The notes: a model not told the origin generated them from the letters alone. DNA of 63,782 nt, filler included, from Cercozoa sp. M6MM (GCA_040357565.1; 16 parts of 16 records of this genome joined end to end with filler, not necessarily neighbours in it); one strand, 5' to 3'. Counted from the first letter of the whole stretch, positions 181 through 63,749 are shown. Translations and numbers: made by a program.

Positions 181-3100
181 CTCATCGGGCGACACAAAAC
201 ATCGAGCATGGCGTGCAGCACCGACATCACATTCGACGCACTTTTGCAGTGCCGCGCAATCTCCAGATACTGCGGCAGCAGGGTCCTACACGAGCCAAAA
301 CAATCCTACACGAGCCGGTCTGTCCTAGCAACGCCCCCTTAACTAGATACATTTCCTGCGTCGAAGCGAAAGCGAGAACGAAAGCGTTCGAAATCGTCGC
401 GAAAAGCTTCGTCCCACTGTTCAAACAAAGACACTGACTGTGTGAACAAGCTTGTCCAAGTGTGTCCAAGGTACTGCACATCAAAGAAGCGGCGCATCAG
501 GTACTGCGCCAGTTGCGGCGCCGTTCTTAACGTCCTACTCGACAACAAAAAACTCACAAAGCGACGAAGCGAAACAAAGCGAAACAAAAGCGACGAAGCG
601 AAACAAAAGCGAAACAAAAGCGACGAAGCGAAGCAAAAGCGAAACCAAGCGAAACAAAGCGAAACAAAGCGAAATACTCTGCGAAAACGTGCGCCAATTC
701 GATTCGGTCCTCCTCGTCTGTCCAAGAGCACTCATTCAGCACGGTAGCAACAAAGCTTTGACTCAAAAGCAACGCGTACCGAACTCGGTGCTGCAAAAGA
801 CGTCGAGTTTGTGCCGCACTTCTTCGTCGAACTCGGCGTGTTCCGGTCCGTGGTTCTGAAGCAACTCAACTCAAAGCAACTCAACTCAAAGCAACTCAAC
901 TCAAAGCAACTCAACTCAAAGCAACTCAACTCAAAGCAACCTCAACCTCGCAACTCGAAGCTACCTCCAAGGCATGCGCCAACGCGAGGAAGGACGACAC
1001 GAACTTCCGGTCGAGTGGCGTTTTGCGCGTATCCTGCAGCATCCCATCCCACACTTCAAAAGCAAAGCAAAGCAAAAGCAAAGCAAAGCAAAGCAAAGCT
1101 TTCGTACCAAATACAAAAAGAAGCACGCGAAGAAAGCATGAGCGAAAATTCGGCGCGTTTCGTCGTTTTTCTGCAGGATTTTTCGCTTTCTTTCGCAGCA
1201 AGTTTTCATTTTCGAAAGCAGAGCAAAAGAACCGTTTGGAAGAAACGCGCGCGCAGACCGCGCCAGCAGAGACGGAAGATGTCGTTACTGCTCTCTTCGG
1301 CGGCGTCGTCGGAGCGAGTGCTGTGAAGGGAGGAGGCCACACTCGGCGCGACAGGCTGCAACGACGCGAACTGCGTCGAAGTGCGGCACACACGATGCGC
1401 CGACAGCAGACTCTTGTGCAACGTCTCCCTGCACACACAGCTTCTCTCACCAGCTCGCTTCTTCAGAGGCTTCGCTTACTCATCCTCCGAGTGGTCACTC
1501 AACGCGAACGCGCAGGCTAGCAACGCTTTCCACACGTTTTCGAAGACGTCTTGCTTCTGCTCAAGCACAAAGCTGCTCAAAGCTCTAAAGCTCTCAAAGC
1601 TCTCAAAGCTTTCAAAGCTTTCAAAGCTTTTTTCAAGTCAAAGCTCTTTGTTCGAGGTGAAGCTATTGCGAGTACGTGCATCGCGTCAATCACGCGAACG
1701 AACTTGGCCAGAATTCGCGTCGTTGCCTGCAAAATTAAATGCGAATCTACACTCAAAAATAACGAAATTTCGAAAAATGAAAGCTACAGCAACGTCGATT
1801 TTGGACCGAGCACTCCGCAGCAGCGCACCGGCCATTCTCCTCAGCTGGATCACTGTCAGCACATATACACACATTCCAACAACTCAGAATACATCAAAAT
1901 AGACTACCTTGGAACGTGGACAGGTACTCCACTTCGCACAGCGGCTCAAGTGCATTCTGCATGCATCCGCGCGGATACCAGAAAATACGAAAAATAAAAA
2001 CCACAAAACTACAGGATCCGAGGCGACGTTGGCACAGATCGTGCGAACAAAGGTTTCCTTCTGCTCCCTGCCTCACACACGCACCGATAAAAAAACGGCA
2101 ACTTTGGTAAACAAGCAGCAGAGAAAGGTGAATTTGAAAAAGTGGAAAAGCGAAGCAAAACTCAACTTGAGAGCGAAAGAGGCGAAAAACTTTGCCGCGA
2201 AACGCGCGCCGTTCGCTTTGTGCTTCTGCAAAAAGGAAAATGCGATGGCGAAATCCACGTGTGAGTTCTGGTGGGCAGAGTGAAAGCTACGGCATCTACG
2301 TGGCCCCACTGGTCACGTGCGAGATCATTCAGCAGCACTGCGATGCCAGTGATGAGTCGCTCGTCACCGTCGCGATCACCGTCGACACCGTCGGGATCAG
2401 CGACACTCAGCACTTCGAGATCAGTGCTGGAAACCGTGTCGATCACGTGATGACACAGCACGTCCATCAGCACGTGCCCAGTTGTCGTGCTGACTTGGTG
2501 CGTCACTCCGCCCGCACGCGTCGCCACGAACTGCGTCTCTCCGCGCGGATGCCTCAGCGCTGCAAAGTCTGTGCAAAGCGCCGCCAGCGCTTGCGCCAAC
2601 TCGCTCTTTTCCTGCAAAGCGGCACTCGAAGGCAAAGCTCGACTCGAAATCAAAAGCGAAGCGACTCGAAAGCAAAGCGCTGTGACGAGCGAAGCGAAAC
2701 CCGAAAACGAAGCAACTCGAAACATCAAAGCGAAACGTGAAAACGAAGCGAAATTCGAAAGCAAAGCGAAAGCGAAAACAAAGCGAAGCGAAACAAAAAG
2801 CGAAAGTGAAAACAAAGCGAAAAGCGAAAGAGCGAAGCGTACCGCGAAGGCGCGCGTGACGAGAGTGCGCACCAGTGCGCGAAACAACGCGACAAACGAC
2901 GCGAAAATGTTGCCACTGCCACTGTCTGCTTAAAGAGAAGAGATACAATAAAAGAGCTCCCGCGCGGACAGGGCCGAAAAAACCAGAAAACAAACCGTTG
3001 TAGTCGTTGCTGTTGAAGGTGTCCAAAATGAGATTCATGCACAGTCGAATCGACGTACTCGTCCAGATCTCCGGGTCTGCAACAACGCCAAGACATGTTT

Positions 3101-3995
3101 TTAAAAAAAAAGACAAAGACACGTCCGCGCGGAAGGCACAAAATACAGGAATTCGCGAGCAGTAGTGTTTGTGCGATTTTCACGGCGTGCTTTTGCGAGT
3201 CCAGCACTCTGCGGACAAGTTACACCGATCTCAGGATAACAGATAACGGGGGGGGTAACGGGGATAAAAAGGGGGTAAAGGCAAGAAACGCACCGACAGG
3301 CACCGACGAGTTTTTTTACGTCTTCGTTGTCGAGCGAGCGCAGAGCGACCTGCCACGTGAGTAAAATGGGTAGGGGTAAGGGGGGGTCAGCTGAAGACGC
3401 ACCAGCTGCTGCACGGCCGTGAGAGCGCTGTCAAAAACCTGCGCCGCTTTCTTCTGGTTCCGCGCGGACGAGGCCGACAACTGCATCGTGCGAATCACTG
3501 TGCCAACAAACATCAACAACAACAACAACAACAACAACAACAACAACAACAATACAACAAAAACAACAACAAAAACAACAACAACAAAACAACAAAAACA
3601 AAAACAACAACAACAACAACAACAACAACAACAACAACAACAATAAAAACAACAAAAACAACAATAACGAACCTGGCCGCACGAGCGCCGGCGACTTCAG
3701 CGCGCCCATCACTCGTTGCGTTTCTTCCTCACTGCGACGAAAAACGGCAAAAATAGCAACAACAACAACAAACAACAAAACACACGAGGTGGCCGACTCG
3801 AGCACGGCACGTAGCAGCTCGCGAGCACCGTCGAACTCTGGGAGTAACTCGCACAGTTCCGGGATCTATAAAAGAAATATCGACGGGGAAGGGGGGGTAA
3901 AACGGAGCAACCTTGCTGCGATTCGTGACGGCCACGAGGTTCTCCACGAGTTCTTGCATGCGCTCGGCGTGCAGTCGAGCCACGGCGCCGCTCAT
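181..3995 (-). CDS. Multi-exon helical-repeat protein, possibly MON2/Sec7-N (DCB)-like; 3'-partial
   Basis: Manual GT-AG splicing gives MSGAVARLHAERMQELVENLVAVTNRSK-IPELCELLPEF...AVQQL-VALRSLDNEDVKKLVGACRVLDSQKHAVKIAQTLLLANS..., weakly like the MON2/BIG N-terminus. The gene is well supported; the family is not. Confidence 0.35.
859..940. repeat. 15-bp tandem repeat (AAGCAACTCAACTCA)x5, intronic
   Basis: Seen directly; it creates the spurious KQLNS and CFELS ORFs. Confidence 0.9.
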
Positions 3996-4670
3996 GTCGT
4001 CACTCCACCGACCAAGAGAACAGAATGATTGCACACACCTGGCTCTCTTTCTGGCCTCTTAACGGGTTGGCACGCAGCTAATAGTGCCACACACACTGAT
4101 GCACACACACAGCGACGTGAAAGCCGATGTTTCGACACGACGTGGCTTTTTTGCTGTTTTTTCGATCGTCGTTTCTTCGGTACTATAGAGGCTAAATCGA
4201 AGATCGAATCCTCAAGTTTCACTTCAAAGCTAACTTAGTGTCCCACACATTCCATGAAAACCGGAAGCAGCCTACTTTGTCATAAATAACATATCGGCTC
4301 CGGCTCAAAAACTATGGCCGGCTCAGCTTTTGGAAAGACCTCAAGGCGATCACTATCTCGAGAAACGTGTCGTGCTAAGACTGAAGACGCTAAAACGAGT
4401 CAATTGCGTGCGTTGCTTTATTTTGACCCCAGGCCCTGGTTCTTTTATCTTTGGCCCGTAGTTTCTTAATCTTGTGTTTTTTTAATCTTTTTGCGTCGCT
4501 GCGTTTGGTCGCTTTAACGTGTTTCGCGGGTTTTGGTGCGTCCGGTGGTGTTGTTTGGTCTTGGTTTGGCGATTGAAGGCGTTGATTTTTTGCGTTTTTC
4601 CGCGTCAGCGTTTTTGTTTATTTTTGTGATTTCCTGGTTCGTATTTTACACGTGAGTGCAGTTTGACTGC

Positions 4671-62363: not shown

Positions 62364-62577
62364 CTGCACACACACACACACACACACACACACACACACA
62401 CACACACACACACNNNNNNNNNNNNNNNNNNNNNNNNNNNNNNNNNNNNNNNNNNNNTTAATTAATTAANNNNNNNNNNNNNNNNNNNNNNNNNNNNNNN
62501 NNNNNNNNNNNNNGGGCAAACAAGTGGGTAAACAAGTGAGTAAACAGGAGGGGGGATATACAGGGGGGTAAAACTAC

Positions 62578-63749
62578 CCGAGAGCACCGGCACCGACGAC
62601 GAAGAACTTGCCGTTGGCGATGCGTCGCTGTGCCTCCTGACCCAGCACGGCCACCTGCCACTGGTACCGCGACTCGGCCGGCTCACGCGCGTCCGCGCGG
62701 ACCGCCTTGTCCGGCACCAGCTCGAACGCGTCCGTGTGTAGCCACTGCTGCACCGGCGTGTACTTGCCCGTCGCCTTGACGATCTCCTGCGCCACCACGC
62801 CGCCCAGGAACGCCGTGAAGCCCACCAGCTCCGCTCTGCCCACACGGGGGGTAAAGGGGGTAAAGGGGGCAAAGAGGTAGGGGTGACAAAGGGTTAGGGA
62901 GCAACACACCGCGCATACAGCGCCGTCAGTCGCACGACCTTTTCGTCGATTTCGTCGAGCACAATCGCCGCGTTCTCCTGCTTGCCGTTCTGCTCCTTGT
63001 GCCTGGGGGGGGGTAAGCGGTAAAGGGGTCAGGGGTAGGGGTAAAGAGGCAGAAGTACTTGGCCATAATGTCCTTAGCGAACTGCACGCACTGCTCGGCC
63101 GCTTCGACGTCGTGCAGCGGCGGCAGCTCTCCCTGTCAAAGGGGGGGGGGGGGGTAAATGGGGGTAAAGGGGGTGGGTGGGGGACAAGTACGTGCTGCTG
63201 TTCGTAGTGCCACAAGGCGAGCTTGGCCACGTGCAGCTGTTCCGACCGACCGAACTTGCCGTAGTCCGTCAGTAGCATGCCCTGGGAAAGGGGGGCGGGG
63301 GGTAAAGAGGGTGAGGGGATAGGGGGGTAAACCTACCCACTTGCCCGGAGCAACCGGCTGCTTCAGCGCCTCCGACAACGGTCGGAAATCCATCACCTAC
63401 CGGGGTTAAAGAGAGGGTTAAAGAGGGGGTATAGAGGAGGTATAGAGGGAAGTAAAAGCACTACCTTCGGCTTCTTGACGGCCGTGGCCATGCCCGAGTA
63501 GACACCGTCGGCCTTCTCGAACGTCGCCTTGAGCTCGAACTTGTTGAACTTGAGCACCTGGGGGAGGTAAAGGAGGGTAAAGAGGAAGGGGGTAAGGGGG
63601 ACAAACCTTGACAGCGAACTCCTTGTCGTTGAGTTCATCAACACCATCAGCAACGGTGCCGTCCTCAGTGAGCACGTGCACACTCTCGAGTTTCACGGCA
63701 CCGTCATCCTCCAGTCCGTGCTGACCGTCCGTCGAGATCGTTGCCACAC
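62578..63749 (-). CDS. UBA1: Ubiquitin-activating enzyme E1 (internal fragment)
   Basis: HGLEDD, LLTDYGKFGRSEQLH, AFLGGVVAQEIVKATGKYTPVQQW and SRYQWQVAVLG...FFVVGAGALG. Confidence 0.92.

Follow-up and report, generated by a model that had tools for sequence, protein, structure and literature searches.

Why should one short palindrome recur, letter for letter, in the exons as well as the introns of a compact eukaryotic nuclear genome? The question is raised by a stretch of DNA from Cercozoa sp. M6MM (GCA_040357565.1), here called the window, which is 63,782 nucleotides long with filler and joins 16 draft contigs (1.3–12.5 kb) by N-padded spacers; all counts given below refer to the 62 kb of DNA that it holds. 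The word is TCCGCGCGGA, a 10-bp palindrome with 15 exact copies, and seven of the 16 contigs hold at least one of them. A first-pass annotation had described it as a highly iterated palindrome resembling the cyanobacterial HIP1 and had ascribed it to a sequence-specific process acting on DNA throughout the genome. The excess is a real and unusually strong feature, and the pattern is that of a DNA-level, sequence-exact, frame-blind and clustered palindrome. As to its cause, we give an even chance to the reading that TCCGCGCGGA is the recognition site of a putative homodimeric DNA-binding protein and is kept by selection inside gene bodies.

All 15 copies are found where the first-pass annotation had placed them, and its estimate that chance would give well under one copy is borne out. 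With the sites masked from training, Markov models of orders 0–5 predict 0.02–0.09 copies (0.055 at order 5), and those of orders 6, 7 and 8 predict 0.11, 0.39 and 1.0, respectively. Trained on unmasked DNA, orders 7 and 8 return 11–15 copies. In form this is the ratio near one that had been named as speaking against the claim; in substance the argument is circular, since the word is part of what the model was trained on, and the masked expectations of 0.11–1.0 stand against 15 copies. Three copies (16320, 16338 and 16356) make up one 18-bp tandem repeat and count as one event, which leaves 13 independent sites. After repeat masking, in which tandem repeats were cut to one unit and 52,816 of 61,952 bases were kept, TCCGCGCGGA is the top 10-mer (13 copies against 0.05 expected at order 3, P about 1e-26), and among 160 palindromes of matched composition the runner-up has three copies. 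A model trained on contigs 1 and 4 alone predicts at most 0.012 copies, against eight independent ones observed there. The enrichment is about 300-fold (260–330) and the density 0.24 per kb, unevenly spread in clusters; measured against second-order Markov expectation (15 versus 0.045–0.05), it exceeds the 16-fold threshold described for short GC-rich palindromes of the HIP class (PMC5861425).

The exact copies of TCCGCGCGGA, the one-mismatch copies and the host genes are as follows.

1966–1975: exact copy in an intron (56 nt) of MHM6MM_007669 (minus strand); 9 nt separate it from the intron end.
2540–2549: exact copy in an exon of MHM6MM_007669, read H-P-R-G.
3124–3133: exact copy in an intron of MHM6MM_007669, about 14 nt past the 5' splice site.
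3459–3468: exact copy in an exon of MHM6MM_007669, read S-A-R-N.
16240–16249: exact copy in MHM6MM_009346, the EPSP synthase model, in its first intron and 5 nt short of that intron's end.
16319–16366, plus strand: 18-bp tandem repeat with three intact copies (16320, 16338, 16356), each read P-R-G, in an EPSP synthase loop that is variable.
16517–16526: exact copy in an EPSP synthase exon, read V-R-A-D where most of 10 homologues have a Gly-Gly motif.
17401–17410: exact copy in an EPSP synthase exon, read V-R-A-D within an insertion loop.
22171–22180: exact copy in a probable exon, minus strand, R-P-R-G by six-frame reading, no gene model.
27119–27128: exact copy in a probable exon, minus strand, F-R-A-E by six-frame reading, no gene model.
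36726–36735: exact copy in a 75-nt in-frame intron that protein P0123 skips.
40584–40593: exact copy in a probable last exon, N-P-R-G-S-stop by six-frame reading, no gene model.
62692–62701: exact copy in an exon of the ubiquitin-activating enzyme E1 model MHM6MM_009525 (minus strand), read V-R-A-D.
Within 2959–59584: 11 one-mismatch copies, starting at 2959, 17428, 19630, 25916, 26935, 28274, 33948, 34294, 36375, 41077 and 59575.
183–3995, minus strand: host gene MHM6MM_007669 (650 aa, 23 mapped segments), four exact copies and one variant.
16116–17546, plus strand: host gene MHM6MM_009346, EPSP synthase domain (partial), six exact copies and one variant.
36223–38246, plus strand: host gene matching P0123 (371 aa), with TAA[G]n-type intron repeats, one exact copy and one variant.
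62577–63750, minus strand: host gene MHM6MM_009525, ubiquitin-activating enzyme E1 (partial), one exact copy.

Three of these gene models were assigned by exon queries against the NCBI proteins of Cercozoa sp. M6MM (100%, 100% and 98% identity); the fourth, P0123, matches contig 10. MHM6MM_007669 had no match in Pfam over its 650 aa. Together the four models cover 12 of the 15 exact copies, the exonic status of the sites at 22171, 27119 and 40584 coming from six-frame inspection only. Within the models, four copies are intronic (1966, 3124, 16240 and 36726) and eight exonic, the latter divided 4/3/1 among the three frames and read as P-R-G four times, R-A-D three times and S-A-R once, in agreement with the earlier description of copies in introns and in all three exonic frames. 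With the tandem counted once, the density is similar in exons (six sites in 4,902 nt) and introns (four in 3,340 nt). In three of the models (3,789 coding bases), eight of the nine four-residue words able to encode the motif do so with exact TCCGCGCGGA, against a mean of 0.2 and a maximum of 3 in 20,000 codon resamplings. This is no codon effect, despite the way in which the genes were chosen, and therefore the signal acts on DNA. Peptide or codon use as the cause of the excess was rejected on this result, and the earlier statement that neither protein sequence nor splicing explains the copies is supported as well. In the four gene models the word thus behaves as one of the HIP class, present in coding and non-coding DNA, independent of frame and not driven by peptides or codons.

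When all 11 matches of the EPSP synthase were aligned, the triple P-R-G was found in a variable loop and one V-R-A-D in an insertion; the V-R-A-D at 16517, by contrast, replaces part of the Gly-Gly motif kept in most homologues. In the E1 enzyme (16 of 105 matches aligned), V-R-A-D lies in a variable loop opposite V-P-A-D of the closest homologue.

The exactness of the word is seen in its neighbours. The CCGCGCGG core occurs 19 times, 15 times with both T/A flanks, four times with one (2960, 19631, 26936 and 28275, as annotated before) and never with neither, which suggests that both half-sites matter. One-mismatch words are enriched five- to nine-fold (11 against 1.2–2.1 expected, P at most 1e-5), whereas two-mismatch words are not (17 against 23–29). 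The earlier proposal that the perfect site be compared with its one-mismatch variants therefore has a divided outcome: the exact word (15 against 0.02–0.09) is far above the variants in enrichment, but the variants are enriched too. With the sites masked, the inner words CGCG (752 against 755 expected), GCGC (818 against 789), CCGCG and TCCGC are at or below expectation.

The distribution of the sites has to be seen against the host genome. Cercozoa sp. M6MM is now named Lemnamoeba sinaloensis (Apofilosa, Rhizaria), a marine amoeba whose genome is described as 27 Mb in six chromosomes, 84% genic and rich in (AC)n, with about 13 introns per gene and a median intergenic spacer of 162 bp (PMC13746701). 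By the same account, five contig ends carry a TAA[G]n motif where canonical telomeres would be expected, and the motif also occurs internally; TAA[G]n is treated here only as a candidate telomere repeat in L. sinaloensis. All 16 contigs of the window fall short of the draft N50 (23.8 kb), and as a sample they may be unrepresentative. Contigs 1 and 4 hold eight of the 13 independent sites and nine contigs hold none, including the 12.5-kb contig 13; this clustering is significant whether contigs are weighted by length (P = 2e-5) or by GC (P = 7e-4). The term 'genome-wide' used by the first-pass annotation is not supported, because the copies cluster by contig and the counts come from 62 kb only, and of its 'seven unlinked contigs' the number stands, while unlinkage is not established for draft contigs. 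Across the 16 contigs, site density rises with the density of TTACCCC/GGGGTAA repeats (rho 0.71, P = 0.002), and contigs rich in (CA)n tend to have fewer sites per kb (rho -0.49, P = 0.054). The genes in which the word clusters have such telomere-like TAA[G]n repeats in their introns. A TAA[G]n-type repeat lies at most 500 nt from 10 of the 13 sites, against 29% of background positions (P = 5e-4), an association that is post hoc, drawn from few contigs and from sites that are not independent within a contig.

Several explanations compete for this pattern. The copies could be what is left of a dispersed repeat, the footprints of a transposon or artefacts of assembly or amplification, as the genome is described as repeat-rich with unclassified terminal-inverted-repeat families (PMC13746701) and three copies do stem from a local tandem duplication. 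This explanation is largely refuted and hardly credible. The flanks of any two of the 13 sites agree in at most 25 of 60 bases (mean 16), no pair shares an extension longer than eight bases, a length reached once, and target-site duplications of 3–10 bases were absent at all 13 sites, which rules out a dispersed repeat or footprint; the copies do not come from one repeat with shared flanks, the case named beforehand as speaking against the claim, and only the 18-bp tandem is a local duplication. An artefact is opposed by exonic copies that keep the frame in the deposited gene models and by a 2,374-base contig of the public run X1 that spans three exact sites without differences. X1 also covers the four contig-1 sites with no other letter; it lends no independent support, because it may be the source run, and runs X2 and X3 gave nothing beyond short repeat matches to the window, with no RNA run among those listed for it. 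That the word works at the level of pre-mRNA, by enhancing splicing or as a patch for self-complementary pairing, is very improbable. Every assigned exact copy does lie in a transcribed region, and three of the four intronic copies end at most 13 nt from the 3' splice site, but such nearness is expected anyway because the introns are only 56–80 nt long; one intronic copy lies near the 5' end and the exonic copies at varied depths. Folded as single strands with DNA parameters, 12 sites showed no hairpin or cruciform excess over shuffles (z from -1.2 to +1.4), and perfect palindromy is more in keeping with a dimer on double-stranded DNA than with an RNA element. A drive by recombination or gene conversion, in which heteroduplex repair in recombination-active, repeat-rich domains would favour the perfect-palindrome allele (which might, for instance, escape cutting or serve as donor) with no gain for the cell, is somewhat less remote but still quite improbable. 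In its favour, telomere-like repeats abound in the domains of the copies, those exonic copies that can be compared with homologues are in or beside indel-variable loops, and the base pair just outside the word is palindromic at seven of 13 sites against 3.8 expected (P = 0.045, one of six positions tested). Set against this are a site density that does not follow contig GC (rho 0.30, P = 0.26) and an excess confined to one word instead of palindromes generally (8-mer palindromes, the TCCGCGCGGA core included, 275 against 236 expected). The cultured strain, moreover, is reported to be over 99% homozygous (PMC13746701), and no difference was found at the six contig-4 sites among the X1 matches listed, nor any allele difference at the sites among the matches listed.

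The main rival, although we consider it unlikely, is a ratchet of the HIP1 type: a methyltransferase would mark an inner core such as CGCG or GCGC, and methylation-directed repair would complete the 10-mer as a by-product, with a function or with none. TCCGCGCGGA is indeed a CpG-rich palindrome, and in four of its 11 one-mismatch copies the change is at one of the two ends (2.2 expected if uniform; a small sample), the direction also described for HIP1 (PMC4390886). Elhai's model of methylation-directed repair, set out in the same paper, explains frame-blindness, would account for a lean of the variants to the ends and allows inner words that are not enriched once the sites are masked. Components are on record too: preferential CGC/GCG methylation in another protist, Amoebidium (PMC11244446), DNMT6 reported in Rhizaria (PMC9998398), and MSH2, MSH3 and MSH6 all present in L. 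sinaloensis (PMC13746701). The model, however, predicts an even spread up to about one site per kb (PMC4390886), yet the sites cluster, and no DNA methyltransferase term appears in the four supplementary files of PMC11069148, which are Gene Ontology enrichment tables and not gene lists. A ratchet acting at the last step only would not enrich one-mismatch words five- to nine-fold, and the six CpG-transition neighbours of the word have one copy in total. Eukaryotes are not known to let methylation direct the choice of strand in this way. The window shows no loss of CpG (observed/expected about 1.0), three of the gene models prefer NCG codons, and no nucleosome-scale CG periodicity was found in the window. 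Algae with Dnmt5, which methylates linkers, are CG-rich despite that methylation, so a high CpG content is compatible with methylation. What stands of the sequence-specific DNA-level process first proposed is its independence of frame and splicing and a density and enrichment like those of HIP1; its genome-wide reach is not supported, and its link to methylation found no positive sign in the window.

The reading of TCCGCGCGGA as the site of a homodimeric protein draws on the shape of the evidence. A perfect palindrome, two half-sites that are both needed and a steep fall from exact to one-mismatch to two-mismatch words fit a homodimeric binding protein under selection, and the clustering together with the co-location of TAA[G]n fits a domain-specific chromatin factor. 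Each subunit of the putative dimer would read one TCCGC half-site, one-mismatch sites would bind weakly, and new sites would come from point mutations or short in-frame duplications at places that the encoded protein can tolerate. The putative protein may act on chromatin, either in general regulation or in the organisation of domains. With a median of only 162 bp for intergenic spacers, its sites would have to lie within genes. There are precedents: in Eimeria, repeat-rich segments are described as pairing a telomere-like heptamer with the palindrome TGCATGCA (PMC3505466), which ApiAP2 proteins are reported to bind (PMC6631176, PMC4117751), and selection with a structural role has been argued even for HIP1 (PMC5861425).

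Several points weigh against this reading, beside the limits of the TAA[G]n association given above. Rather similar counts would be expected from a biased repair process. No exact copy was assigned to a promoter or spacer, the usual place for regulatory sites, only five of the 11 one-mismatch sites have a TAA[G]n-type repeat within 500 nt, and no nucleosome-scale phasing of the sites was found within the window (P = 0.58). By our own reading of the frame, the variants at 25916 and 26935 are one synonymous change short of the perfect word and yet imperfect, which also speaks against a strong drive. The excess of motif-compatible four-residue words (nine against 0.68 expected by residue shuffling in three gene models) is inflated, because the models were picked for holding TCCGCGCGGA. 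Between units 1 and 2 of the 18-bp tandem, none of 11 motif bases but three of seven spacer bases differ (Fisher P = 0.043), a weak sign of ongoing maintenance that is a single, borderline and ascertained case.

Among known systems, HIP1 (GCGATCGC) and the alternate HIPs (PMC4390886, PMC5861425) offer the nearest parallel in kind. TCCGCGCGGA is likewise a short GC-rich palindrome, its enrichment is in the range reported for HIP1 (16–317-fold; PMC5861425), it occurs in coding and non-coding DNA irrespective of frame, and its function is contested between a repair ratchet and a chromosome-structure site. Its clustered density in these 62 kb would also be in the range of HIP1 (0.2–2.73 per kb; PMC5861425), and its few one-mismatch variants may lean to the ends. 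Unlike HIP1, it is a 10-mer without a GATC or CGATCG core in a eukaryotic nuclear genome, and while some contigs hold clusters of it, others have no copy. Of the wider HIP class, which is marked as well by a methyltransferase for an inner core, by sites conserved among related genomes and by a periodicity of 10–90 kb (the contigs here span 1.3–12.5 kb), it is a candidate member. Strict HIP1 was rejected, as the word differs from GCGATCGC, lacks GATC and belongs to a rhizarian instead of a cyanobacterium; 'HIP1-like' remains apt for the frame-blind excess. The closest eukaryotic analogue is TGCATGCA of the Eimeria repeat-rich (R) segments (PMC3505466, PMC6631176, PMC4117751): both are palindromes of SAR protists in repeat-rich domains beside a telomere-like repeat, a co-location recognised for TCCGCGCGGA post hoc. 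The R-segment palindrome proper, bound by ApiAP2, is not what the window holds, since TCCGCGCGGA differs from it in sequence and length. For TGCATGCA, an excess is reported in upstream and intergenic DNA and a binding protein is known, whereas TCCGCGCGGA lies in exons and introns, where it shapes peptides, and its binder is only putative. Fungal zinc-cluster factors read everted CCG/CGG sites such as the Pdr1 site TCCGCGGA, and the vertebrate BANP site is TCTCGCGAGA; both are promoter elements. They share with TCCGCGCGGA the form of a short CpG-rich palindrome with TC...GA ends and differ from it in spacing or core and in their promoter position; TCCGCGGA itself has no copy in the window.

A scan of other collections (8 of 64 parts of the metagenome contigs, 9 of 64 of the prokaryote genomes, and viral contigs, with little protist DNA among them), for two copies of TCCGCGCGGA 10–40 bases apart, found no other genome that iterates the word. 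The 286 loci recovered held 23 extra site clusters against 11.5 expected, and one locus reached P < 0.001. The top two, the only ones of the 286 inspected, were rejected as iterated-word cases: L049 is a fold-back duplicate, and L057 is a repeat with shared flanks. In L057, a metagenome contig, a repeat of about 260 bases occurs three times at 170–1300, each with one or two TCCGCGCGGA-like words in shared flanks and twice followed by a small open reading frame; it is unrelated to the pattern of the amoeba. No description of TCCGCGCGGA or CCGCGCGG as an iterated motif was found in the literature covered, which leaves out most subscription journals. The strings 'palindrom' and 'methyl' do not occur in the main text of either L. 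sinaloensis genome paper, and a Phytophthora binding-site paper has no motif in its text that matches TCCGCGCGGA. The iterated word is thus apparently undescribed so far.

Other features of the window may be recorded here. Its introns come in two styles, with either sense-strand arrays of the C-rich TTTACCCCC(C)TG type, complementary to TAA[G]n (for example at 16590–16700 and 16990–17140, and in many introns), or (TG)n/(CA)n tracts, and contigs tend to favour one of the two; the introns of MHM6MM_009346 carry C-rich repeats of the TAA[G]n type. CACGTG, often as CACGTGC or CACGTGG, is a second clustered palindrome (20600–24356 and 60974–62413) with 26 copies after repeat masking, against 1.9 under a window-wide order-2 model and 6.2 under local models; amino-acid use may contribute, because seven of nine exonic copies share one frame (four other gene models). 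GACGGT/ACCGTC also clusters in GC-rich contigs (15986–17735, 20600–24356 and 60974–62413), where 12 of 18 sense-strand exonic copies share one frame (four gene models), which points to codon or amino-acid bias. Regional word bias is therefore a general trait, although none of these words comes near the enrichment of TCCGCGCGGA.

Within the EPSP synthase gene, a degenerate 15-bp tandem repeat with a GATCGATCA core (17270–17360) forms an in-frame insertion of DQTVI-like units, and the intron at 16845–16875 carries similar GATCGATCA repeats. X1 contig depth is 538 at 16090–16590, against 265–363 in other unique stretches, possibly owing to a second copy of this part of the gene or to GC bias. The one-mismatch copy at 19630–19639 lies in a flavodoxin-like exon, which we take to be TYW1-like; it may stay imperfect through protein constraint, because completing the palindrome would change a Phe codon. 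An interrupted, near-identical non-coding stretch, seen by eye and with related k-mers ranking high, is common to two contigs (39063–39165 and 45714–45870) and is probably a dispersed repeat. A RhoGAP-domain gene at 49903–53630 has an open exon of 943 codons on an intron-poor contig without TAA[G]n and without exact or one-mismatch copies.

In its widest form, the proposal is of a eukaryotic equivalent of HIP1 in Lemnamoeba, a single 10-bp palindrome present thousands of times in exons and introns and kept at a cost in amino acids. It would mark TAA[G]n-rich chromosome domains for a chromatin-organising protein of its own or for a sequence-specific DNA methyltransferase, the nucleus being too compact for intergenic sites. 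We offer this tentatively and regard it as possible, though on the doubtful side. The origin of HIP-type words has been open for three decades between a repair by-product model and a selected chromosome-structure model, and a cultured, near-homozygous eukaryote for which six assembled chromosomes and 25.8 Gb of HiFi reads are reported (PMC13746701) makes both directly testable. TCCGCGCGGA also shows that a signal in eukaryotic DNA can be strong enough to alter the peptides of housekeeping enzymes, which bears on how cis-signals are placed in compact, intron-dense protist genomes.

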